In this document: piece after piece, positions 1,945-57,347 of the stretch
How the letters are laid out: every line of letters begins with the position of its first letter
Numbering within the stretch: position 1 is the first letter of the stretch
DNA from: Candidatus Micrarchaeota archaeon
Lineage (GTDB): Archaea; Micrarchaeota; Micrarchaeia; Micrarchaeales; CABMGC01
DNA: 57,351 bases
Reading direction: 5' to 3'
Assembly: GCA_021790305.1 (NCBI GenBank)
Contig: JAJYED010000004.1
Coordinates: forward strand, 1-57,351
Made by a program: the position numbers and the translations under genes
Notes under the pieces: generated by a model
The model's database searches: none
What the model was told of the DNA's origin: nothing
Seen by the model: only the letters and a program-made list of their open reading frames with translations

Positions 1945-4900
1945 TTGGCGATCAGGGACATGTTACATCTAAAATCACTCACTATACACAGGTTCAAGTC
2001 ATTCAAGCACGCAGAACTTCTTTTCAATGATGGGTTTACATGTATAGTGGGGCGTAACGGCTCTGGGAAGTCAACAATCTTCGATGCTCTTACATTCGGT
2101 CTTGGAGTTACGTCTAAGAAGAGGCTGCGAGTAAACAGCATGAAGGAGCTCTTATCCGATTCGCTGAAGGAGAAGAAGGGGCTGCATACAGCTTATGTCA
2201 AGCTCACCTTTACAGGAGATGAAAATGTAGAAGTGGCCAGATATATACGCTCTGACGGAAAGCACGCTTACAGGGTTAACGGGAAGAGGATGAAGAAAGG
2301 AGATGTGATGGAGCTCCTTGCAAAGCATGGAATAAAGTCCGATTACACGAATACGATGCTGCAAGGAGAGATAAACCGTGCAATAGAGATGAATCCTAAG
2401 GAGAGGAGGGAGCTCATAGACATAGCTTCCGGCATAAAGGAATTTGACATAAAGAAAGATGAGAGCCTTAAGGAGCTTGACAAGGTGGATCAGAAGATAT
2501 CAGAGGCGAGGGTCTCTTTGAACGAGAGGACAGGTTTCCTGAAGGAGCTTGGAAAGGAGAAGGAGGTTGCAGAATCTTATCTTAATTACAATAAGAGGCT
2601 AAAGGCCTTGAGATACAGCCTGCTTTCGATGAAGAAAGAGGCTCTGCAGATGTCTTATGACGATGCGGGCAGGAAGATTACAGTTATAGAGCAGAAGAAG
2701 GGCGGCATTAAACAGAAGTATGAAGAGATGAGCAAGCGGATAGAGCAGCTGAATGATGAGAGGCAGACGCTCATGTCGGAGATGAATGAGCGTACAACTT
2801 CTTCGGGGGAGAGGAGCAAGAAGTTGGAGATATCTGCGGCAGAGCTGGCAAACGTTAAGGCTGAACTTTCAAACAGGGAGCAGCAGATTGTTCAGTGCAA
2901 TTTGGATATCGCTGCGCTTGAAGCTGAGCGCAAAGGCATATTAGATAAGATAATTGCAAATTCAAAGGAGATAGAGAGGCTTAGAGAGGAAGAGAGCAGG
3001 TATGCAAAGATTGTTTCTGAGCTTGACTACCTTGGAATTGCTGATGAGAAAGCCGATGAGATACGGTTGATAAACCAGAGGATACTGGAGCTGAGCAGCA
3101 AGCTGATGGATGAGCAGGAGCATATGTCCAGAGTGGGCGCAGACAGATCAGCGATGCTGGACAGGAAGGAATTCTACAAGAAGCAGGCAGAGGAGGTATC
3201 CAAGGGCACAGTAAGCCTGGTCTCTGAGATGAATGATCTTGGCAAGCGCGTTCCTGAGATAGAGAGTAGACTTAAGGAGATAGAGGCTGAGCTGAAGAAG
3301 CTCGACTCTGGATCAAAAGGCCTCTCCTCAACGATAGAGAGGGCTGATGAGAAGCTCATAGAGCTCAGGGAGCAGAGGTCTTACGCAAGGCAGAGGAATA
3401 GTCAGCTTGAGACAAAGCTGACAGCTGCATTCAAGGAGAAGGATGGTTTCTATGGAAAGGCAGCTTCATTATGCACCTATGAACTTGAACACTCTGCTGC
3501 GATAGAGGCTGCTGCAGGGGCGAGGATGGAGTACTTTGTAGTCGATGATATAGACGTTGCCAACCGCATAATAGAGTATGTAAAGAAGAATAGCCTTGGC
3601 AGAGCCACCTTCATACCGCTAAAGGAGATAAAGACTATAGCGCAAAAGGAAGATGAGGAGATGGAGAGGCTCGTCGATCTGGTAAAGTTCGACAAGAAGT
3701 TCGGCAGGGCTTTCGAATATATATTTGAGGATACCTTCCTTGCAGAGAGCGTTGCACAGATAAAGAAGAAGGGAGTGGGCAGGCACAGGTATGTGACAAT
3801 TGATGGAGAGCTTGTAGAGCGCTCAGGGATAATAAGCGGAGGCTCAGGATACGGAAAGGTATCGGTAAGGACAATAGATATGAGCATAGAGAAATTTGAA
3901 GCGGAGAAGAAAGCAGCTCGCGAGGCGACTGATGCAATCGCAGGAAAGCTGTTTGATGCAAGAAAAGAGAAGATGCTTCTGGAGAGCGAGCTCAAGTCGA
4001 TAAACGATAGGACAAGCAGGTTGTCTTCTGAGGTAGCGATAGCTGAAAAGAAGCTCAATGATTCGGTAGCTGCTGCAAAGGAGCTAGAGGTAAAAGCAGC
4101 AGATATAGAGAAGGGCATGCAGGAGATGGATAAGGCAAAGCTTGAGACTGCAATGGAGATAGAGAGGCTGAAGGGCAGGCTGGCAAACGCGGAGAAGGGG
4201 AAGAAGGGCAAGGGGGCGATGGAAGAGGAGAGGAAGAAGCTGAATGATGCCCGTTCCGGCCTTGACAAGACAAGGATAAGGATTGCTGAGCTTTCAAAAG
4301 AGAATGAGATGATTAGTGAGAGGGATTCGGGAATAACCTCTTCGATGAAGAAGAGGAATGGTGAGATAGAGAGGAGCAGGAAGGAGATAAAGGAGCTTAT
4401 ATTGAAGAGACAGGTTCTGGAGGATTCAAGGAAGAGGATAGAGGAGGAGATAAAGAACAGCAGCAGTGTCACCTCGAAGGCTTATGAAAGAATGCAGAAG
4501 ATGGAGGCTGAACTGCAGAAGATGGGCATTGAGAATGGCAAGACCTCTGCGGAGCTGGCAAACGCAGAGAGGGAGCTGAACGAACTTAATATTGTAAGAG
4601 GCCAGACAGAGACAAGACTGAGCGATATAAAGGCGGAGTTTGCCTCGTATGATGGAGAGGGGATAGGGACGGTGGATGGAAGGATAGAGGATATGGAAGC
4701 TGAGGCTAACCTGCTCAACCTTAAGATAAAGGATCTTGGAAATGTCAATCTTAAGGCTCCTGAGATATATGAGATTAAGAAGAAAGAGGTCGACGAGGCG
4801 GATGCAAAGGTGCTCACGCTTGAAGCTGAAAAGGAAGCTGTCCTTAACATGATAAACGAGATAGAATCGAAGAAGCTGCAGATATTCATGGATACATTCA

Positions 4901-33702: not shown

Positions 33703-33803
33703 TGGTGCAGGGAGAGAGATTTGTTCAGTGTTATTGAACTCTCGTAGGCCTAAGCCAACAGATCTTGAGTCTGTCGCGTTTGACCAGGCTCCGCCATCCC
33801 TGC
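33703..33803 (-). tRNA. tRNA-Leu(CAA) with a 13-nt intron in the T loop (33721-33733); CCA encoded
   Basis: GCAGGGA/TCCCTGC acceptor, ACAGA-CT CAA GA-TCTGT arm, variable arm; removing TAACACTGAACAA restores GAGAG-TTCAAAT-CTCTC. Confidence 0.9.
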
Positions 33804-36904: not shown

Positions 36905-37564
36905 TCAGCGTTTTTTGAGTACAGCGAATAGGTGCATCCTGTCGAAAGGCATAAGGTCCATTGACTCCACAACCTCGAATGTTCCGGATACCGCCTTTAG
37001 GAATTCCTTGTACACCACTTTCGGATTCTTTGATACGCTGATGCTCTGTGACTTTATTGCAACATATGCATAGCTTCCTTTTCCTAGGAACCTGCTGTTC
37101 TCGATAAGCATCTGCGCCTGATCCCTTGCGGCTATATCCTGATACAGCACGTCTGCAAGGCCCACTTCTTCAGCATACCTCTCAACGTTCCTTGCATTTT
37201 CCAGTATAGGCAGCATATTCTCCCGCTTTTCGCAGACCTTTATCAGATCTCGTACGCTTCTCTCAGATACCTCTACGCAGTAGAGCTCTCCTTCCATTGA
37301 TATTATGTCGCTTATATGGCTGCATGTTGTGCCTGTCGCTGCTCCCAGGTAAAGAACCTTGCTCCCCTTCTTTATCTGCATGTGCCTCATTCCTTTCAGA
37401 ATGGCAGCGGCAAGCTTTGATCTGTAGGGATTCCATAGCCTGTACTCTTTGCCATCCGCTTTAACAAGCTCTTCTCCGTATACCTTCTCTCCCTGTACAA
37501 GATTGACAGTTGCAAGCTTTCCATTCACCCTGAACACCCCGTCGAATACTTCCTTTGCAGTCAT
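36905..37564 (-). CDS. flpA: fibrillarin-like rRNA/tRNA 2'-O-methyltransferase
   Basis: VYGE, YRLWNPYRSKLAAA, VLYLGAATGTT, YQDIA. Confidence 0.96.
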   Translation of the reverse strand: MTAKEVFDGVFRVNGKLATVNLVQGEKVYGEELVKADGKEYRLWNPYRSKLAAAILKGMRHMQIKKGSKVLYLGAATGTTCSHISDIISMEGELYCVEVSERSVRDLIKVCEKRENMLPILENARNVERYAEEVGLADVLYQDIAARDQAQMLIENSRFLGKGSYAYVAIKSQSISVSKNPKVVYKEFLKAVSGTFEVVESMDLMPFDRMHLFAVLKKR

Positions 37565-37609
37565 TAGAACACTGACATGATTTGGCGATGCATATTTATA
37601 ATCCTTTTA

Positions 37610-49127: not shown

Positions 49128-49267
49128 GGGGTTGTTGCGTAACTTGGCAGCGCGGCAGGCTCCAGATGTTTATAATCCAATGAGCCTTTCGGCGATGATG
49201 AGGATCTGGAAGTACCGAATAAATATGAAGTAACCTGCAAGTCGGGGTTCAAATCCCCGCAACCCCA
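49128..49267 (+). tRNA. tRNA-Trp(CCA) with a 67-nt intron at 37/38 (49166-49232)
   Basis: GGGGTTG/CAACCCC acceptor, GCAGG/CCTGC anticodon stem, CCA at 49162-64, T arm GGGGTTCAAATCCCC. Confidence 0.92.
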
Positions 49268-49378
49268 AGCCCTATCCCATAGCAACAGGATGCATAGATT
49301 ATTTATAGATAAGTGAGATATATATCCAGCAGATTTCGCCTGTTGGGCCTAAAATAAATAGAAACATGTTGGGTTTTT

Positions 49379-49522
49379 ATGAACGTACGCATGCATGAAT
49401 TCTTTATCGCTTTCATTGCTATATTCAGTGCCACGCTTATCCTCAGCTTCTGGCTTGGCGGATGGCCATTCATACCTGCCGGAGCGCTGTTTGTTTACAT
49501 AATTGCAAGACTTGACAAATAG
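49379..49522 (+). CDS. 47-aa membrane protein missed by the ORF track
   Basis: MNVRMHEFFIAFIAIFSATLILSFWLGGWPFIPAGALFVYIIARLDK, helical-hairpin pattern. Confidence 0.5.
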   Translation: MNVRMHEFFIAFIAIFSATLILSFWLGGWPFIPAGALFVYIIARLDK

Positions 49523-49534
49523 CATTCTTTCTGT

Positions 49535-50761
49535 TTACTCCCTGCTTAACGTTATCATCCCGTATCGTTTCATGAATATGTAACTGCTTGCCAGCCTGCT
49601 CAGTCTTTTCGCGTCCAGTTCTTTAATCATCTGCGGTATTTTTGCATACATTCTTCCATCGCCGTACATCAGCTCCATCTCAGTTATCTTAGTTGCAGTT
49701 TCCATCGTATCGTCAGTATCCATTGCGTATTTTATCTCAAGTCCGCGCTTGACATTTTCCAGCTCCTCGCTTTTAATCTTTCCGCTCTTGAGCTTCTGAA
49801 ATTCCTGGAGCATTATCTGCCTTATTTTATTGAGCTTTGATGGAGAACCTCCCGCAGATGCTGAGATATAGCCGAATGTGCCGTATGCGTTGTATTCGAC
49901 ACTTGGGTCGTATGAAAGCCCGTGGATCTCTCGTACCTGATCGTAGAGCCTGTTGTTCAGTATGCTCGCTATCGCACGCATTGATACATACTCTTGGAGC
50001 TTGGACGCGTCTATCCCGTGGCATCCGAAGCCTATGGCAACCTCCCCTCTTTCAGTATCCTTCCGCTTCATTTTTATGCGCCTGGTGTTATTGTTCGGAA
50101 ATAATCGGTCACGCTTTGGACTGGAGAGTTTCCGCTCAAAATCGCCCATGTATTTCTTGGCAAGTTCAACTCCGTATTCTGCGCTTATGCCTCCGCTTAT
50201 TACCATGACGGAATTGCCCGGATTATAATAGGTCTCGTAAGCATCTATTATGTTCTGAAGGCTTACATTGTGCTCCAGGGAGCTTATGCTTTCAGGCATT
50301 ATTCCCTTGCTTTTCTTGAACAGCGCCCTTGGCATGTTGTCATACACTATCGAATTCGGATCCTCCTTCCTCATCGCTATCTCATGCGTGATGGGACCGA
50401 GCTCATGTTTGAATTCCTTTCTTGAGAACTTCGGGTGCCTGAACATATCTGATATCAGCTCCATTGCGTTCTCCGTATAACGCCTGTACACCTGCGCTTC
50501 GTACATCGTGGTCTCGTAATCCGTCTCGGCGTTGTAGAAGATGTTGTACTTCCTCGTTATCTCGTTTATCTGCGACCAGCTCCTCTTCTTTGTGCCTTTG
50601 AAGAGCATGTGCTCAAGATAATGTGCAAGGCCTTCATGGTTCCTTCCAACATCTACCGAGCCGAAATTAACCCCTATCACTATGCTTACTGATTCCAGGC
50701 TCTCCTTTTGGGCTATGAGCACCCTTAAGCCATTATCTAAAGTTCGCTTGTGGATCTTCAT
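49535..50761 (-). CDS. M16 family zinc peptidase
   Basis: LDNGLRV, GLAHYLEHMLFKGT (HxxEH), RLYDQVREIHGLSY. Confidence 0.93.
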   Translation of the reverse strand: MKIHKRTLDNGLRVLIAQKESLESVSIVIGVNFGSVDVGRNHEGLAHYLEHMLFKGTKKRSWSQINEITRKYNIFYNAETDYETTMYEAQVYRRYTENAMELISDMFRHPKFSRKEFKHELGPITHEIAMRKEDPNSIVYDNMPRALFKKSKGIMPESISSLEHNVSLQNIIDAYETYYNPGNSVMVISGGISAEYGVELAKKYMGDFERKLSSPKRDRLFPNNNTRRIKMKRKDTERGEVAIGFGCHGIDASKLQEYVSMRAIASILNNRLYDQVREIHGLSYDPSVEYNAYGTFGYISASAGGSPSKLNKIRQIMLQEFQKLKSGKIKSEELENVKRGLEIKYAMDTDDTMETATKITEMELMYGDGRMYAKIPQMIKELDAKRLSRLASSYIFMKRYGMITLSRE

Positions 50762-51014
50762 CGTATTAGATGTAGCGAAGCAACTTTCTTTAACCTTTTA
50801 GAGCATTTTGGTATGTAGCGATGCTTTCTAAGGACTTGTCTATAAAGAAGATGCTTATTTGGCAGGATAAATGATAAAATAAATGCAGTAGATGGCATAA
50901 AAGACAAAATGGATACAAGACAGGACAGCATGGTGCACTTTCTTTGACATCAGGGCATACGCTCATACATAAAAATCTTGCTTTGCATAGATATTATCAT
51001 ATAATGGTGATTTT

Positions 51015-51287
51015 GTGGCTAGAAGAAGAAGCGTTAGAAAGAGCGAATCTGGAGAATATTCCAGAGGTGCCAATAGAAAGATGCACGGACCTGTAGGCTG
51101 GTTATATCTGGTTGCAGGAATAGTGCTGGTATTCGTAGCGTACTTTGTAAACCCTGCGCTTATAGCAGCACTGATATTCTTTGTGATAGGACTGGGCTTG
51201 CTTGCCGCAGGATTCGGCATGATGGGAATAAGGTGTGGCTTCCTGTGCAATTGGTTCTGCGATGACAGCTGCGGTACCAAACACTGA
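51015..51287 (+). CDS. small 2-TM protein with Cys-rich tail
   Basis: GGTGA RBS, two TMs, CGFLCNWFCDDSC. Confidence 0.6.
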   Translation: MARRRSVRKSESGEYSRGANRKMHGPVGWLYLVAGIVLVFVAYFVNPALIAALIFFVIGLGLLAAGFGMMGIRCGFLCNWFCDDSCGTKH

Positions 51288-51341
51288 CTGGTGTTAAGCA
51301 TTTGATGCGTGGTCTTTTTCCATGCATCTTTACTATATGTG

Positions 51342-51378
51342 CGGAGAGAGAATACTCTCTCCGTTATTCTTTTTCCTT
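51342..51378 (+). terminator. 9-bp hairpin followed by a U-rich tract between convergent genes
   Basis: CGGAGAGAG-AATA-CTCTCTCCG then TTATTCTTTTTCC. Confidence 0.45.
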
Positions 51379-51402
51379 TGTAATTATCGCACTTGCCTGC
51401 CT

Positions 51403-52473
51403 TTAGACGTTCCTGTGTACAAGGAAGTCAACCAGCTGCTTCATCCTCTCCTTTGCTGCTGAATCAGGAAGTGTCTTGTCTACTGCATCCCATGCTTCTT
51501 TTATCATGCGCTCTGCTATTTTGGTTGAGTATTCCTTCGAATTGTACTTGTCGATTATACCTATTGCTTCTTTTATCAGGACTTTGTCCTTTGTGTGCAT
51601 CCTTAGTATCTCGGAAAGCCTGTTCTTGTCAGCTTCACTGCCTTCCTTCATCACATGCAGTACCATCAAGGTTATCTTGCCTTCCGAAATGTCGTCTCCA
51701 ACTCCTCCCTTGCCTTCTGAGAGCTTGCTTTCCGTCAGGTTGAGTATATCATCCTGTATTTGGAATGCTATGCCTATAGTTGCACCGAACCTTCCCATTA
51801 TCTCTACGGTTTTGTCATCAGCGCCTGCAAGTGCAGAACCGAGTTCGCATGCAAATCTTGATAGTACGCCTGTTTTGTCGTGAGCCATCTGCAGATACTT
51901 CTCCTCTGTTATGGTCTTGGGATCCACAAGGCCACCGTGCCACGCTATATCTATAGCCTGGCCTAGAGATACCCTTGTCATATTTTTTATGTATATTGAG
52001 GCTGCCCTGTTCTTTTGGTCTTGTGTAAGCTTTGGGCTGTCAATTAATGCAAGCATTGGGAAAAAGTACATGAAGTCGCCAAGGTTTGTCGCTACATCTA
52101 TCCCGAATTTTACATGTATAGAATCGGCATTTCTCCTTTTTGGGGAATTATCCTCTATATCATCATGAATCAGAGTGGCGTTGTGTATCACTTCTGGTAT
52201 TATTGAGAACTCTATATATTCATCAGGGTTCTTGCCAAGAGCTTCAAGTGTGATCATGGTCAGTGCAGGGCGCCACCTCTTGCCTCCAAGATCAAGGAGA
52301 TACCAAGCAGGCTCCAGGATGCTCTTTGTCATGGCTTCAGGGTCATACTCGTAGTTGCTCCTTCCAAGCAGGCTTTCTATATACCTGTTTGAAGACTTTT
52401 TCTTGAGGTAAGTCTCAAGTTCCTGATTGACCTTTTGTGAATTTTCCTTTAGATACTCTTCAAAATTATCCAT
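51403..52473 (-). CDS. polyprenyl diphosphate synthase (GGPP synthase-like)
   Basis: GGKRWRP, LIHDDIED..RR, GQAID, KT, FQIQDDIL, DDISEGK. Confidence 0.94.
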   Translation of the reverse strand: MDNFEEYLKENSQKVNQELETYLKKKSSNRYIESLLGRSNYEYDPEAMTKSILEPAWYLLDLGGKRWRPALTMITLEALGKNPDEYIEFSIIPEVIHNATLIHDDIEDNSPKRRNADSIHVKFGIDVATNLGDFMYFFPMLALIDSPKLTQDQKNRAASIYIKNMTRVSLGQAIDIAWHGGLVDPKTITEEKYLQMAHDKTGVLSRFACELGSALAGADDKTVEIMGRFGATIGIAFQIQDDILNLTESKLSEGKGGVGDDISEGKITLMVLHVMKEGSEADKNRLSEILRMHTKDKVLIKEAIGIIDKYNSKEYSTKIAERMIKEAWDAVDKTLPDSAAKERMKQLVDFLVHRNV

Positions 52474-52602
52474 ATACACACAGCGCACGTTTAGGTGCTA
52501 TTATAGATTGACTTAGGGTATTAAGAATTTAGCTGCTTATTCGTCAAAAGAGGTAAGGTAGATTTAAATCTTGAACGTTTCAAATCTAGAATAGGTATTA
52601 AC

Positions 52603-52851
52603 ATGGTAAAGATAGATGTTAAGGCAGAGGCAGCAAATCTTCACAAGGCCACGCGAACGCAGATAACTACATTGATAATAACTGCATTCGGGCTTGTAGC
52701 AGCGCTTGCATGGAATACTGCAATACAGGGGATTTTTGTGTTGGTATTCGGCCCAGCCAGTTCGATAGGGGCCATGCTGAGTTATGCAATTCTGGTTACT
52801 GTGATAGCGGTCATAGTTACTGTTTATCTCTCAAGGCTAAATTCCAAGTAA
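52603..52851 (+). CDS. small 2-TM protein (DUF5654-like)
   Basis: LIITAFGLVAALAWN.AIQ...YAILVT. Confidence 0.75.
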   Translation: MVKIDVKAEAANLHKATRTQITTLIITAFGLVAALAWNTAIQGIFVLVFGPASSIGAMLSYAILVTVIAVIVTVYLSRLNSK

Positions 52852-52855
52852 GTAA

Positions 52856-53476
52856 TTACTTCCTTGTCTTCTTAACAGCTATCCTGTATATTATGTATAG
52901 GATGAGTGCGAGGAATGCCACTGCGGACATTGCAATATAAAGGTTATTTGAAGACAGCAGATAGTATCCAAAAAGCATTAGCAATATGTCCCATATCGCA
53001 CTTCCTACCAAAGAGTATAAGAAGAACTTTTTGAAAGGCATCCTTGCAAAACCTGCAGGGAAGCTGATAAGCCCTCTTAGAACTGGTATCATCCTTGATA
53101 CAAATACTGCAAATCCTCCATTCCTGTTGAACCAGCTGTCAAAAGCATCTATTTTCTCCTTGTTTATGTGGAAAAGGTGAAGATGTTTGTATACTACATC
53201 CTTGCCTATGAAATATCCTATTACATAGTCTATGACTACGCCAACCATATTTCCTGCAAGTATTGCAAGTGCAGCTATGTAAAAATTAAAGACGCCTTTT
53301 GCAGCAAGATATCCTGCTATCGGAACTATTACCTCACTAGGTATAGGCAGGGATGCGCCTTCTAGGGCCATCATCCCGAACAATCCCAGATACCCGTAAG
53401 TAGAGAGCAGACTGTTGATGTACGCAGTACTGAATATCGTTTGGAGCAGCAGTAGTATTTGAAGCATATTTTTCAC
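52856..53476 (-). CDS. DedA family membrane protein
   Basis: LEGASLPIPSE, SRMIPVLR..ISFPAG. Confidence 0.92.
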   Translation of the reverse strand: MKNMLQILLLLQTIFSTAYINSLLSTYGYLGLFGMMALEGASLPIPSEVIVPIAGYLAAKGVFNFYIAALAILAGNMVGVVIDYVIGYFIGKDVVYKHLHLFHINKEKIDAFDSWFNRNGGFAVFVSRMIPVLRGLISFPAGFARMPFKKFFLYSLVGSAIWDILLMLFGYYLLSSNNLYIAMSAVAFLALILYIIYRIAVKKTRK

Positions 53477-53510
53477 ATAAGATAAATATTTGGTAACAGT
53501 AGATCAACTG

Positions 53511-54221
53511 TTACTTTTTACGGATCGTGAGTATGTACAGAATAACAATTCCTATTGCGAGTATTGCTCCGACAATTATAATAAGGCTTGGAGCCTGGCC
53601 TTGGCTTGTCGCTATTGTTGTAGAATTCTGTGTGTTATTCTGGCCAGGTATGGTATAGAGCAATGAGGTCGTGTTGGCAATAGTAGTGGTGTTTACAGTC
53701 TCGACCGTAGTCTGAACTGTTGTAGTTGTAAGGTTTGCAGGTAACTGTGTTGCTGAAGTTACAGTTCCAGCATCTGAATTGGTGCCAAACCATTCTGCAA
53801 GTATCAACCATGAGCCATTAGAGTATACATATGTGGCAGAATAAGGTATGAATAATGCGGTGGTCTGGTTGCTTGACACAAACCATATATCCCTGTTTAC
53901 GCTGTATGCTGTAGCATTTATGTCTACCACACTTGAATTCCTTATGTAAAAGGTGTAGGGAGTGCCGTATGAAGTTATGTTTTCCAACGCAGGCAGTATC
54001 TCAGAATTACCATAATAGGTATTGCTGAAGTTAGTGTAATTCATATTTATGAATATGAATGGATATGTAACATAGCTTCCCATAGTAGCACTTATGTTTC
54101 CTGCAGCTATTTCGCTTATATGCACAGTGGATATGTTTGCAAGCGTTTGGGTGACGTTCGACTGGGCAAGCACTAGAGATGAGATGAAAATTAACGCAAG
54201 TAAAGGTATAGATGCCTTCAT
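53511..54221 (-). CDS. secreted Thr-rich, membrane-anchored surface glycoprotein
   Basis: signal peptide, sequons, Thr stalk, TM plus RKK. Confidence 0.75.
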   Translation of the reverse strand: MKASIPLLALIFISSLVLAQSNVTQTLANISTVHISEIAAGNISATMGSYVTYPFIFINMNYTNFSNTYYGNSEILPALENITSYGTPYTFYIRNSSVVDINATAYSVNRDIWFVSSNQTTALFIPYSATYVYSNGSWLILAEWFGTNSDAGTVTSATQLPANLTTTTVQTTVETVNTTTIANTTSLLYTIPGQNNTQNSTTIATSQGQAPSLIIIVGAILAIGIVILYILTIRKK

Positions 54222-54286
54222 CCTATCATATTGGTTATTAAAGCGTGCAACTTATATAAATGCGTTAAATCGATTGGTGTTTTTAA

Positions 54287-55207
54287 TTGCCAATAGAATG
54301 TGTAAAACTTACAAAAAAATACCACGGAGCTACTTCAAAATCACTGGATAATGTAAATGTCAGCATACCTACCAAGGGGATATTCAGCCTCATAGGAAGG
54401 AATGGGGCAGGAAAGACTACACTTACAAGAATACTTGGAACTCAGCTCATGCCGAGCTCGGGACACGCGAGCATTAATGGGCTTGATGTTGTGGATGATG
54501 CTAAGGAGCTCAGGGAGATCATCGCGGTGATACCGCAGGATGGGAAACCTGTTCCGTGGGTAACTCCTGCACAGATGATAATGACATATTTGATGTGGAG
54601 AGGATATGGGATTAGGGATGCAAGGTCAAGAGCCTTAAGCGTGATAAAGGATGTCGGTATTTACAAGGAGAAGGATAAGCATATTGAAAATCTTTCAGGC
54701 GGCACAAGGAGAAAGGTGCTTGTAGGATGCGTCCTTGCCTCTGAAGCAGAGATAGTCTTCATGGACGAGCCGACTACCGGCCTGGATCTTATATCAAGGA
54801 CTTCTTTTTGGGAGACTCTTGGAAGGCTGAAAAAGGACCGTTTCTTCCTTCTTACCACGCATTACCTTGAAGAGGCAGAGTCACTTGCTGATGGAATAGG
54901 CATACTTGACAACGGAAAGCTGCTGGTATCAGGGAGCATGGACCAGATAAGGAGGAGGATACGCTATAAGTACATGGTTACTCTTGGAAAAGATGCAAAG
55001 GTCCCTGATGTTAAGGGAAAGACGGTGCGCACTTCTAACAGCACAAAAATAATGACATCTGAGAAGGAGGCAAAGAAGATAGCTTCTGAGATGATAAGGA
55101 GGCATGCAGAATTTTCAATGAGTCCCATATCACTGAATGAGATATTTTACTCTTTTGTAAAGGAGGATATAGATTTAGAAAACGGTGAGAGTCATGAGGA
55201 GAAATAA
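54287..55207 (+). CDS. ABC transporter ATP-binding protein (multidrug/ABC-2 type)
   Basis: GRNGAGKT, LSGG, MDEPTTGLD, TTHY. Confidence 0.93.
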   Translation: MPIECVKLTKKYHGATSKSLDNVNVSIPTKGIFSLIGRNGAGKTTLTRILGTQLMPSSGHASINGLDVVDDAKELREIIAVIPQDGKPVPWVTPAQMIMTYLMWRGYGIRDARSRALSVIKDVGIYKEKDKHIENLSGGTRRKVLVGCVLASEAEIVFMDEPTTGLDLISRTSFWETLGRLKKDRFFLLTTHYLEEAESLADGIGILDNGKLLVSGSMDQIRRRIRYKYMVTLGKDAKVPDVKGKTVRTSNSTKIMTSEKEAKKIASEMIRRHAEFSMSPISLNEIFYSFVKEDIDLENGESHEEK

Positions 55208-55937
55208 GCTTAGTCAGATCTGGGCATCCGTCCTTCTTACAGCAATATACTGGATGAGAAATTACCCTATATCGATAGTTGCGTCCTTCCTCTCTCCGCT
55301 TGCGATAGTGTTGATAATATCATTTGTAAGCAAAGGTGCACTTGTAGGAGTAGCTGTTGAAGGTGCGTTGATAACGACTTTTGTGCTTAATGGAATAATG
55401 GAGATGACAGACATATCTCATTTGAAGAACGATTTTAAGATACAGGATATGGTAGTGGCTTCTCCCACTTCTGCCTTCTCGTATATATTTGGCATGTCGC
55501 TTTCAAGCCTGGCTACTTCTATCCCATCAATAATATTCATACTCATATTGTGGAGCGTTTTTGTACATACTACGATAGTATCTGCTCTGACGGTTTTTGC
55601 CGTGGTGGCTCTCCTCATGGTCCTTTCCATATCAATAGGTTTCTTCCTGGCTACCAGAACATCAGATATATCTCAGAGTTATCAGTTTACAAGCATACTT
55701 GGCTTGCTTTTTACAACAATTTCCCCTATATACTATCCTATATCTCTGATACCGATGCCATATAGGTATCTTGCATATCTCTCTCCGATAACCTATGGAG
55801 CAGAGATAATACAGAGCGCAACTGGTTACCTTAGCATAAGTTCCATGAATCTTGCAGTTGACTGGCTGGTCCTCATCGTTCTTACAGCAATTACACTGTT
55901 CTTCGCGATAAAGGATTTGAGATGGCGCGAGGCATGA
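55185..55937 (+). CDS. ABC-2 type permease
   Basis: six TMs, PIYYP...P......LSPITY motif. Confidence 0.9.
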   Translation: MRVMRRNKLSQIWASVLLTAIYWMRNYPISIVASFLSPLAIVLIISFVSKGALVGVAVEGALITTFVLNGIMEMTDISHLKNDFKIQDMVVASPTSAFSYIFGMSLSSLATSIPSIIFILILWSVFVHTTIVSALTVFAVVALLMVLSISIGFFLATRTSDISQSYQFTSILGLLFTTISPIYYPISLIPMPYRYLAYLSPITYGAEIIQSATGYLSISSMNLAVDWLVLIVLTAITLFFAIKDLRWREA

Positions 55938-55941
55938 GTTT
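55803..55941 (+). repeat. left copy of duplicated permease 3' end
   Basis: 55803-55827 = 57135-57159 (25 bp) and 55876-55941 = 57163-57228 (66 bp). Confidence 0.9.
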
Positions 55942-56080
55942 TGCTTGGGAGATTTCGGGTTTAGGATAGATGTAATTCGCATATTGTTATCTGCCATAAC
56001 GCCGCCTAACGGCCAGGTAGGATACGATAACTTTTTCAGTTTATTATTAAACAGGTTAAGCGTATTAAACAAGTGAAACG

Positions 56081-57136
56081 ATGGGAAATAAGGATTGGTA
56101 TACTGAAAGGTGGAAAAATAAGCAAGCGCTTAAGAAAAAGACACGACGCCTTGAAAAACTGAAAAGAAATGTAAAAAAAGATAATTCTGATGAAGACTCT
56201 CTAGAACTGACTATTTATGATTCTGACGATCCGGTTTTAGGTGAATTAAATCAGGGCATCCTAGCTGGTCTGAGTTATCCCACTTATACAATCCTGTCTA
56301 AAGGGAAATTTATTCAAGGAATGACCGAATCAAAAGAACAGGGAGGTATACTTAGCAAGCTTTCGATAGGAGATAACATAGTATTTGACATGTATGATGA
56401 AAAACCTGTGATAATGGGGATAACCCAAAGGCGCTCGAAGCTTGTCAGGTTACGTGCAGACGCTTCTAGGCGCTCTCAAGCTGGAGCAGAAGAGCAAGTG
56501 ATTGCAGTTAATATGGACTTGGCAATAATTGTTGCTTCTGTAGCCCAGCCCACTTTCCACCCAAGGTTAGTAGATAGATACCTGATAGTGTGCCAGTACG
56601 GCAACATACGTCCTTTGCTATGTCTGACTAAGATAGACTTAGCGCCAATACCAGATGTGTCAATGTACCGTGGGATAGATCTGCCGGTTGTAAGCATATC
56701 AAACAAAACTAATGAAGGCATAGACCAGCTACTGCCTTATCTTAATGGAAAGTGTTGTGTCCTAGTTGGTAACAGCGGCGTAGGAAAATCCTCCCTAGTC
56801 AACACTCTGCTTAAGAGAGAGGAAGCATTAACAGGAGAGGTAAGCAAAAAATCTGGAAAAGGAAGACACACTACTTCAGCTTACATGCTGCACGTCTTAG
56901 ATAAATCTACTTATCTTATCGATACACCTGGAATACGTTCGCTTGGTTTATTGGACATAGACAAGAGATCATTGCGCTTATATTTTCCTGAGTTTCATGA
57001 GTTCGCAACTAATTGCAAATTCAATGATTGTACACATTATCATGAACCAGACTGTGCAGTCAAAAAGGCAGTAGAAGAAGGGTTTATCTCACAGGAGAGG
57101 TACGATAGTTATATCCGTATCCTATCAAAGAGTTGA
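56081..57136 (+). CDS. rsgA: ribosome small subunit-dependent GTPase A (circularly permuted)
   Basis: TKID before GNSGVGKS, GRHTT, IDTPG, CKFNDCTHYHEPDC zinc finger. Confidence 0.92.
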   Translation: MGNKDWYTERWKNKQALKKKTRRLEKLKRNVKKDNSDEDSLELTIYDSDDPVLGELNQGILAGLSYPTYTILSKGKFIQGMTESKEQGGILSKLSIGDNIVFDMYDEKPVIMGITQRRSKLVRLRADASRRSQAGAEEQVIAVNMDLAIIVASVAQPTFHPRLVDRYLIVCQYGNIRPLLCLTKIDLAPIPDVSMYRGIDLPVVSISNKTNEGIDQLLPYLNGKCCVLVGNSGVGKSSLVNTLLKREEALTGEVSKKSGKGRHTTSAYMLHVLDKSTYLIDTPGIRSLGLLDIDKRSLRLYFPEFHEFATNCKFNDCTHYHEPDCAVKKAVEEGFISQERYDSYIRILSKS

Positions 57137-57228
57137 GATAATACAGAGCGCAACTGGTTGCCTCGTTCTTACAGCAATTACACTGTTCTTCGCGATAAAG
57201 GATTTGAGATGGCGCGAGGCATGAGTTT
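57135..57228 (+). repeat. right, internally deleted copy of the permease 3' end
   Basis: 25-bp and 66-bp exact matches to the left copy, about 45 bp missing between them. Confidence 0.9.
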
Positions 57229-57347
57229 GGCGGGGGGGAGATTTGAACACCCGATCTCTAGATTTCTAAGATCATAGCCGAAAGGCTCATTACTCATCAT
57301 GCTATGCATATGAGTCTAGCGCTCTAACCAGGCTGAGCTACCCCGCC
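57228..57347 (-). tRNA. tRNA-Met(CAT), probably elongator, with a 45-nt intron at 37/38 (57264-57308)
   Basis: GGCGGGG/CCCCGCC acceptor (G1-C72, not initiator), CTAGA-CT CAT AA-TCTAG after splicing; Ile2 identity not fully excluded. Confidence 0.88.

Follow-up and report, generated by a model that had tools for sequence, protein, structure and literature searches.

In Euryarchaeota, the intron of pre-tRNA-Trp carries a box C/D guide for Cm34 and Um39, as described for Haloferax volcanii and for Pyrococcus sR50 (PMC7994747, PMC2584109, PMC7714728, PMC4090602), and a review terms it a “unique example” of the modification of a tRNA by its intron (PMC4090602). In the accounts cited here, Cm34 of tRNA-Met is directed by guides with genes of their own, namely, sR49 in Pyrococcus and a Haloferax guide (PMC2584109, in which the Met guide is described as “always exonic”) and SNORD97/SCARNA97 in humans (PMC6601510). 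The 66-nt intron that interrupts the elongator tRNA-Met of Nanoarchaeum equitans is an abundant, stable C/D-like RNA (Randau 2012, PMC3491384); the cited text names no target for it, the supplement gives “no prediction”, and the RNA is treated as a single case. Two further precedents are an engineered one-motif “hemi” C/D RNP, which is active but loses site specificity in vitro (Hardin and Batey 2006, PMC1635284), and the transposition of tRNA introns in Thermoproteales (Fujishima 2010, cited in PMC4090602 and bioRxiv 10.64898/2026.10.13.758758).

We analyzed a 57,351-nt stretch of DNA from a “Candidatus Micrarchaeota” archaeon (here, the window), which contains the genes of tRNA-Trp(CCA) and elongator tRNA-Met(CAU), each with an intron (Table 1). 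A 21-nt sequence shared by the two introns is likely the L7Ae-binding D'/C' kink-turn of two independently inherited intronic 2'-O-methylation guides, each aimed at its own C34. Both introns are old, and each probably carries a built-in guide that directs methylation of its own wobble base. Fibrillarin, Nop5, L7Ae, and EndA are all encoded.

Table 1. Positions of the tRNA genes, intron elements, and fibrillarin frame in the window
Feature	Positions	Strand	Description
Fibrillarin (aFib) open frame	36908..37606	-	PF01269, 255.7 bits; NCBIfam NF003276 over cut-off; catalytic subunit that the guides would recruit
Pre-tRNA-Trp(CCA)	49128..49267	+	Rfam RF00005, 46.8 bits; 5' exon 49128-49165, C34 = 49162, 3' exon 49233-49267
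Trp intron (67 nt, at 37/38)	49166..49232	+	Putative reduced classical box C/D guide: D' - hairpin - C' - guide - D - loop - C
Shared module, Trp copy	49179..49201	+	Box D' 49180-49183, 3-bp hairpin 49184-49193, 3-nt bulge, box C' 49195-49201
Trp antisense element	49204..49210	+	Predicted partner of U33 through intron base 2 in the precursor, with G49209 opposite C34
Box D and box C-like elements	49215..49230	+	Degenerate box D 49215-49218; box C-like element 49225-49230
Pre-tRNA-Met(CAU), elongator	57228..57347	-	Rfam RF00005, 54.8 bits; C34 = 57312, A37 = 57309, A38 = 57263
Met intron (45 nt, at 37/38)	57264..57308	-	Putative single-kink-turn self-guide
5' hairpin of Met intron (3 bp)	57300..57308	-	Adds to the cis duplex of target and guide (6 bp; ~10 bp with the hairpin)
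Met guide	57292..57297	-	Antisense to positions 31-36; G57295, fifth from box D', pairs C34
Shared module, Met copy	57269..57291	-	Box D' 57290-57287, hairpin 57286-57277, bulge, box C' 57275-57269
BHB helix partner, Met intron	57269-57266	-	Follows the Met module

The shared module and its surroundings

The initial annotation had described a nearly identical 21-mer in the two introns (49179-49199 on the plus strand and 57271-57291 on the minus strand), had read it as a D-like box, a hairpin, and a C-like box, and had seen in the flanks different guides, each matching its own host anticodon. These readings hold. The two 21-mers differ at a single position (20/21 identity), and a scan of the window at ≤3 mismatches returned these two matches and no others, against a chance expectation of 0.01. 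By its sequence, the 21-mer corresponds to the kink-turn (box D', hairpin, and box C') of two putative C/D-type guides encoded in introns, and the same predicted C'/D' kink-turn is found in orthologous introns; in each intron an antisense stretch to the host's own anticodon loop is aimed at C34. One of the checks proposed by the annotation, a search of the rest of the genome, yielded no extra copies at ≤3 mismatches, and the matches at 4 to 5 mismatches all lie outside tRNA genes. Searching the window for Rfam small RNA families at gathering score returned RF00005 tRNA matches only.

The guide lies 5' of D' in the Met intron and 3' of C' in the Trp intron, that is, on opposite sides of the module. 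Outside the module the two introns have nothing in common, and their lengths and guide positions differ. Misassembly of either locus, which the annotation had named as a possible refutation, is ruled out: the tRNA-Met gene also occurs at the end of a second contig (C12) with a 126-nt identical overlap, the Trp and Met genes lie on one contig in genomes G001, G003, and G005, 7 to 10 kb apart, and a contig from another study (run X5) shows 0 differences from positions 57226-57328.

The Trp, Met, and Ser(UGA) introns

The Trp intron fits the classical intronic guide. Like its euryarchaeal counterpart as described in the cited reports, it lies at 37/38 of tRNA-Trp(CCA), is ~65 nt long, contains C'/D' and C/D-like motifs, and is antisense to its own anticodon loop, with the C34-targeting element between box C' and box D. 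Unlike that counterpart, it lacks a guide for position 39, in place of which the window and the order have an AU-rich variable spacer, and its box D is degenerate and one base out of the N+5 register. In the window precursor, the pairing of the antisense element has a probability of 1.0 in the ViennaRNA ensemble. The antisense core is present in all 75 parsed Trp introns; box D is in register in 44 introns, shifted by +1 in 7 and by -1 in 2, and not recognizable in 22, a few of the 75 rows being mis-parsed. Of 58 genomes searched for outgroup Trp genes, 32 had a pattern match; 30 loci were read, 2 of them non-tRNA. The guide for position 39 persists, with the parts in the same order, in the Trp introns of three outgroup genomes (G121, G044, and G051) and of three Hadarchaeota. 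On this layout, we regard the Trp module as descended from the D'/C' element of the classical Trp intron with its two guides, and the intron as a classical two-kink guide in decay whose position-39 arm has been lost. Trp introns of four other lineages have a one-kink layout, and guide-free Met or Trp introns occur in several families of Micrarchaeota. Because the outgroups hold the complete classical layout, an origin of the Trp guide by copying of a piece of the Met precursor is largely rejected. As a separate observation, the Trp intron core resembles the Met precursor from D' into the Met 3' exon, which is explained by the box C consensus together with the antisense to the Trp anticodon.

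The Met intron has the antisense element at N+5 from its D-type box that is expected of an archaeal box C/D guide, and a predicted kink-turn or K-loop of C- and D-type boxes with tandem G.A pairs. Standard box C/D guides are bipartite; here, both in the window and across the order, there is one motif, and the Met intron is therefore a variant and not a standard member of the class. Its guide-target duplex consists of 6 perfect pairs followed by a bulge and reaches ~10 pairs with the bulged cis extension (standard guides, ~9 to 12 bp). It is probably a natural one-kink guide aimed at C34, judging from these sequence features; our literature search found no assignment of a target to the Met intron.

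A Met self-guide with C34 in the N+5 register occurs in 136 of 301 genomes of the phylum, compared with 0 for a reversed-pattern control. In a wider scan of contigs, at least 119 stretches matched, 80 of which were listed; bacterial rows were dropped as chance matches, and records of Nanoarchaeum, other DPANN, and Hadarchaeota are among the matches listed. Since most Met rows outside the order were picked through the guide pattern, the presence of a guide there is by construction. Features outside the search pattern recur, namely, the box C' core in 141 of 141 distinct Met introns and a stem of ≥2 bp in 138 of 141. Counted on the parsed elements of distinct introns, the first three stem positions are paired at a frequency of 0.937, versus 0.663 in shuffles (maximum, 0.715), and the pairs vary among GC, CG, AU, and UA, so that the stem covaries. 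Box D' is the canonical CTGA in 24 of 107 introns, the module alternates freely between a hairpin and a K-loop across relatives, and a 3-bp stem at the 5' end is present in 103 of the 121 introns whose spacer has the length for it, in 21 different stem sequences. We date the Met module back as far as DPANN.

The N. equitans Met intron (L181) belongs to the same family, with the order target, hairpin, guide, one base, CTGA, hairpin, and box C', and its guide and target covary (G31-C). Compared with that intron as published, the window Met intron is shorter (45 versus 66 nt) and lacks the 3' GC-rich hairpin. The comparison names a candidate target for this orphan RNA. The separately encoded Met guides, as described, share with the window Met intron the target nucleotide and the predicted N+5 chemistry, but they act in trans, whereas the window guide sits in the intron of its own target.

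The intron of tRNA-Ser(UGA) is a putative third self-guide of the genome; it has a K-loop instead of the kink-turn hairpin, and its internal motif is unlike the Trp/Met module. Thus, the family of self-guiding introns suggested by the annotation is seen within this one genome (Trp, Met, and Ser). The Met and Ser introns differ from the euryarchaeal Trp guide in being one-kink and in residing in other tRNAs. A fixed one-base spacer puts position 34 at N+5 in the Met and Ser guides and positions 34 and 39 at N+5 in the outgroup Trp introns. Intronic self-guides would then form a wide family, as opposed to the “unique example” of Trp and the never-intronic Met guide of the cited accounts (PMC4090602, PMC2584109), and self-guidance would offer a reason for the retention of tRNA introns in reduced genomes.

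Precursor folding and the proposed methylation

The mismatch of C34 within the bulge-helix-bulge (BHB) central helix, pointed out by the annotation in both precursors, is present in each 4-bp helix (partner GAAG in Trp and TTAG in Met), but as a conserved signal in Met it is rejected: among 107 distinct Met introns, the helix is perfect in 34, mismatched at C34 in 33, at A35 in 32, and otherwise in 8 (~8 rows have a mis-called 3' end). Among the Trp rows, the mismatch is at C34 in 51 of 75 and at U33 in 11, with 13 mis-parsed. The predominance of C34 in Trp may arise because the helix partner (49227-49230 in the window) overlaps the box C-like element.

In all three precursors (Trp, Met, and Ser), the predicted fold pairs base 34 with the guide in cis, and for 134 of 141 Met precursors the pair between C34 and the guide G has P > 0.5. 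In the window, the BHB fold lies above the minimum free energy by 11 kcal/mol (Met) and 7 kcal/mol (Trp). The computed folds suggest that the precursor folds first with its anticodon loop paired to the intron antisense in cis and the D'/C' kink exposed. By analogy with known C/D biology, L7Ae, Nop5, and fibrillarin would then load on the kink and C34, paired five nucleotides from the D-type box, would be methylated; refolding to the less stable BHB would follow, and EndA would excise the intron.

The same chemistry might operate in trans, with the excised (circular) intron or another precursor guiding methylation. Such a route is favored by the in vitro work cited for Haloferax pre-tRNA-Trp (PMC2584109, PMC7994747) and would suit the accumulation of the N. 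equitans Met intron (PMC3491384), but we think it unlikely here: in 17 of 141 introns a spacer of as little as 2 to 5 nt makes a single hairpin of target and guide, the target on the precursor itself is blocked by the cis hairpin, and only 6 to 7 pairs are available on a mature tRNA. The cis-versus-trans question becomes testable on a 120-nt RNA. Like the Met intron, the engineered hemi RNP has one C/D motif and one guide; it is reported as nonspecific, whereas for the Met intron a single hairpin joins the target to its guide and could serve as an anchor in place of the second motif. A natural one-kink guide, if true, would challenge the need for two C/D motifs for specificity (PMC1635284).

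The antisense and the kink could also be a device for folding or splicing timing, in which an L7Ae-bound hairpin hides the anticodon and delays the BHB, with little or no methylation. The greater stability of the cis hairpin and the retention of the Trp antisense where box D has decayed would agree with such a role, as would the state of Nop5, which also counts against guided methylation. The window genome's Nop5 covers only profile positions 112 to 378 of 417, and the ~110-residue N-terminal domain is missing in 5 of 5 Micrarchaeota genomes examined and present in N. equitans. The N-terminal domain of Nop5 binds fibrillarin. A profile search found no separately encoded N-terminal domain, but such searches are insensitive, because PF08156 misses even the N. 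equitans domain; a weak match in G121 proved to be an unrelated open reading frame. A purely structural role is nevertheless distinctly unlikely, since the fixed N+5 spacer is a methylation rule for which structure has no need, and fibrillarin is retained in 40 of 41 genomes. Returning to methylation in cis, we offer only tentatively a broader scheme, in which Micrarchaeota would methylate wobble bases by a stripped-down system of one-kink cis guides (Met and Ser, with Trp decaying) and an RNP with an N-terminally short Nop5, and in which micro-conversion in this genus would have homogenized the kink between two unrelated tRNA introns while the guides were kept.

Origin of the match between the two modules

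The annotation had explained the shared 21-mer by a portable C/D scaffold that moved between tRNA genes and was then retargeted, giving rise to both introns. As the source of these two introns, such a scaffold is largely refuted, and we hold it to be very unlikely. Transposition between tRNA types is reported in Thermoproteales (PMC4090602), where, likewise, introns that belong to different tRNAs within a genome share similar sequence; there, however, whole introns are described as alike, whereas here the likeness is confined to a constrained 21-nt module, in one genus and in two unrelated old introns. Met and Ser introns, and the Trp introns of four other lineages, share the one-kink layout, so that the design may have been copied in ancient times; in G353 the Trp hairpin is similar to the Met hairpin, and the Trp core resembles the Met precursor (see above). 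Against these points stand the unrelated flanks and opposed guides, the descent of the Trp module from the classical intron, the age of the Met module, the different internal motif of Ser, and the lack of further copies in the genome at ≤3 mismatches. Moreover, across 36 other genera, the edit distance between the two modules is 7.56 within genomes and 7.59 between genomes, and no concerted evolution was found in 66 genomes of these genera (permutation p median, 0.57). Order-wide concerted evolution is therefore rejected, and a transposed, retargeted scaffold is unsupported. We read the near-identity of the kink as a peculiarity of a single genus rather than as the trace of a mobile cassette, and a mobile-scaffold headline would contribute less, amounting at most to genus-level micro-conversion.

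The kink-turn consensus fixes most of the 21-mer in both intron families: about 15 of the 21 letters are the order-wide consensus in both introns, and for the remaining 4 to 6 free letters Trp and Met agree only in this genus. These letters may have been matched by a short conversion (possibly a 15- to 21-nt tract) or by convergence, about equally well. (i) Pure convergence, in a sequence space kept small by L7Ae and stability constraints that both introns share, has an even chance of being correct. Besides the extent of the consensus, it is favored by the distance of 2 edits that separates the G000 Trp module from those of Met in two unrelated genera and by a C-G third pair being the commonest type (50 of 110); however, none of 4,156 cross-genus Met-Trp pairs is as close as the window's pair, and the proximity of the two genes is peculiar to the same genus. 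(ii) A gene-conversion tract of ~15 nt (box D' with the A that precedes it, and the hairpin) that left the guides untouched has slightly less than an even chance. A tract of this length is very short for recombination. The hairpin type is not confined to this genus, being found in 3 of 67 genus-level Met variants and 7 of 66 genus-level Trp variants (counts that include the genus itself). With 37 genera tried, chance would give an edit distance of 2 about 7% of the time, the window had been chosen for its match, and within-genus permutation is weak (p = 0.03 for the full motif and 0.20 for the hairpin; n = 6, related genomes). In favor of conversion, the edit distance is 1 to 4 in the six genomes of the genus with both genes, whereas the cross-genus pairs include none at ≤1 edit and 8 at 2. 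Along the long stem leading to the genus, both hairpins changed to one common form, while in the sister genera (g35/g11; RpoB tree, support of 100) the third Met pair is A-U in 3 of 3 tips and the Trp hairpins are different. The short distance between the genes in this genus compares with ≥59 kb in ten other genomes with both placed on one contig, and the variable loop base agrees within three of the six genomes.

Probable self-guiding tRNA introns and the module shared by Trp and Met

The shared 21-mer is a real observation. Its two copies in the window differ by a single base; one lies in the 67-nt intron of tRNA-Trp(CCA) and the other in the 45-nt intron of elongator tRNA-Met(CAU), each inserted at 37/38. 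A search of the window with up to three mismatches returned these two copies and no more (0.01 expected), and across the 742-kb genome (G000) the sole extra close match is the Met gene itself, in a 126-nt contig overlap on contig C12. The module is a predicted kink-turn that opens with box D' (NTGA) and a GC-closed hairpin and continues through a 3-nt bulge to box C' (RTGA...). In the Met intron, a one-base gap separates D' from the antisense element on its 5' side, whose fifth base pairs with C34. In the Trp intron, the antisense element is on the 3' side of C'. After it come a degenerate box D, a loop, and a box C-like element, the last of which also serves as the helix partner in the bulge-helix-bulge (BHB) splicing fold. 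Because the antisense side and the layout differ, the role of the module differs between the two introns. ViennaRNA, which includes no kink-turn or protein energies, pairs C34 in cis with the guide G in both window precursors (p = 1.0) and gives a cost in stability of 11.3 (Met) and 6.6 (Trp) kcal/mol for the BHB fold.

Judged by its sequences, the family of Met self-guide introns is old. Matches to the Met query were found in 41/41 genomes (40 relatives plus G000), and the guide and module are present in the orthologous introns of all 39 extracted Met precursors. An exon-plus-guide pattern matched 136 of 301 genomes of the phylum (reversed control, 0), and a near-identical Met gene exists in records labelled Micrarchaeota. 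Among the matches listed in a scan of species genomes, the Met layout occurs under the depositors' labels Nanoarchaeum equitans, Nanoarchaeota, Woesearchaeota, Aenigmatarchaeota, Nanohaloarchaea, Hadarchaeota, and “uncultured Methanosarcinales”. Bacterial rows of that scan were discarded as chance matches. Features outside the search pattern are conserved in the 141 distinct Met introns: the box C' core in all, the stem in 138, and hairpin pairing of 0.937 (shuffles, 0.663). Four Watson-Crick pair types occur at position one. A 5' hairpin is present in 103/121 introns, and in 134 of the 141 precursors the pairing between C34 and the guide has P>0.5. The sole available exon-guide covariation in the family is at position 31, in N. 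equitans. Distribution is patchy. In a check of 55 genomes, nearly all of them negative for the exon-plus-guide pattern, the guide is present in some with a longer spacer or with different letters in the exon, and the Met introns of several families lack it.

In many Met introns from outside the window's order, the 3' part holds a second antisense stretch against exon positions ~21-28 (loci L088, L093, L102, L109, L119, and L133), and a CTGA/CTGG overlapping the BHB partner often follows directly. This stretch may act as a second guide, with its target near 26-27, or may help with unfolding.

Scanning the genome with a generic self-guide pattern gave 21 matches. Three of them fall within tRNAs, two in Met and one in tRNA-Ser(UGA) on contig C18, a gene that ARAGORN wrongly assigns to Ala. 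All 30 Ser loci read have the order guide, one base, CTGA, loop, box C', with U34 as predicted target; a hairpin like that of the shared module is absent from all but one genome, in which the insert is longer. Since the Ser intron has the layout without the module hairpin, the family is united by design and not by a single copied cassette. The family of self-guiding tRNA introns proposed in the initial annotation is borne out as a real one, on sequence grounds, for Met, Trp, and Ser(UGA).

Features discussed in the text (G000, genome of the window; C, contig; L, extracted locus)
Feature	Location	Strand	Remarks
21-mer, Trp intron	window 49179-49199	+	
21-mer, Met intron	window 57271-57291	-	
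Islet, 1.3 kb	window 55876-57244		bounded by two 82-nt direct repeats, 94% alike
RsgA GTPase gene, bacterial type	window 56081-57136		inside islet; TIGR00157 over cut-off
tRNA-Leu(CAA)	window 33706-33803	-	~15-nt extra T-loop stretch; Rfam match, ARAGORN miss
tRNA-Ser(UGA)	G000:C18:4200-4322 (L364:101-223)	+	37-nt intron, one-K-loop self-guide
tRNA-Ser(GGA)	G000:C21:69385-69515	+	anticodon-loop intron and T-arm insertion; default ARAGORN misses or miscalls
tRNA-Leu(UAA)	G000:C31 near 4020-4125	+	D-loop insertion; default ARAGORN misses or miscalls
Nop5 gene	G000:C32:1304-2134 (L078)	+	start near residue 120 of solved archaeal Nop5

Origin of the Trp module and of the identity within the genus

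The window's Trp intron is a reduced form of a classical guide. Its antisense core is retained in 75/75 parsed Trp introns of the order. A few rows being mis-parsed, 44 of these introns have box D in register, 9 have it shifted, and in 22 it is unrecognisable. Outside the order, inspection by eye identified the full two-guide intron in the relatives G121, G044, and G051 and in three Hadarchaeota genomes, with a D' guide that places C39 at N+5 (pairing with the fifth nucleotide from the box). Because these outgroups have the full form with its parts in the same order, the Trp module descends from one that already sat at this position. Four other lineages (G353, G356, G360, and G367) have a one-kink, Met-like Trp layout, and guide-free Trp introns occur in families f4 and f9 and part of f13.

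Two Trp guide types alternate, one short with a decayed box D and the other fully paired with an intact box D and K-loop. No correctly parsed row of the order has a perfect Trp BHB central helix; the mismatch is at C34 or U33. In G353, the hairpins of the Trp and Met one-kink introns (L454 and L128) resemble each other, which makes this pair another candidate for inter-intron copying.

The 21-mer had been read as a portable C/D scaffold, transposed or converted between tRNA genes and then retargeted. This reading is unsupported, save for a possible micro-conversion at the genus level. In 72 genomes of 37 genera with both genes, Met and Trp modules outside the window's genus are separated by a mean edit distance of 7.56 when both come from one genome and 7.59 when they come from different genera (one-per-genus permutation test, median p 0.57). 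Genome by genome, the distances in the genus are 1, 2, 3, 4, 1, and 2. A 29-genome RpoB tree, from which G010 was left out for lack of a match, groups the genus with the neighbouring genera g35 and g11 (support, 100). Their hairpins differ from its own; therefore, it was on the stem of the genus that both hairpins acquired their present form. This favors a one-off conversion of ~15 nt, as do a Met-Trp gene distance of 7-10 kb, peculiar to this genus among placeable cases, and the lack of any pair within 1 edit among 4156 cross-genus pairs (8 at 2). Against this, as many as 37 genera went into the comparison, the match itself was the reason for choosing the window, and the same type of hairpin also arose elsewhere. 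We consider conversion slightly short of an even prospect and give convergence an even chance.

Methylation machinery and proposed mechanism

Genes for fibrillarin, Nop5, L7Ae, and EndA were all found. EndA is a single chain of 384 aa, a length within the size range of the ARMAN epsilon type; together with the near-identical Met gene in records labelled Micrarchaeota, this makes Micrarchaeota the most likely affiliation of the organism. Given the layout, conservation, covariation, predicted folds, and machinery genes observed by sequence and computation, a C/D RNP probably loads onto the intron guide and 2'-O-methylates base 34 ahead of splicing, after which the precursor would refold into the BHB. 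The out-of-register Trp box D of the window's genome (a +1 shift) weighs against this mechanism, as does the non-specificity in vitro of a single-motif C/D RNP, reported in PMC1635284. Nop5 also counts against it, lacking its N-terminal domain (~110 residues) in 5/5 Micrarchaeota genomes (G000, G023, G032, G039, and G121); N. equitans Nop5 retains it. Insensitive searches found no separate gene for this domain, and a full-text search yielded no paper on the short Micrarchaeota Nop5.

In full-text searches of papers available without subscription, we found no assignment of C34 as a Met-intron guide target and no description of the DPANN Met-intron guide family. The PMC3491384 supplement lists the N. 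equitans Met intron RNA with coverage 31500 and target “no prediction”. Related work comprises PMC2584109, PMC7994747, PMC7714728, PMC4090602, PMC6009581, PMC7668247, PMC6313347, PMC6601510, PMC3239211, PMC5558902, and bioRxiv 10.64898/2026.10.13.758758.

Surroundings of tRNA-Met and other unusual tRNA genes

The right-hand repeat of the islet overlaps tRNA-Met at its 3' end. Past the same tRNA-Met, contig C12 diverges, and therefore strains differ at the islet. The extra T-loop stretch of tRNA-Leu(CAA) is probably a non-canonical intron.
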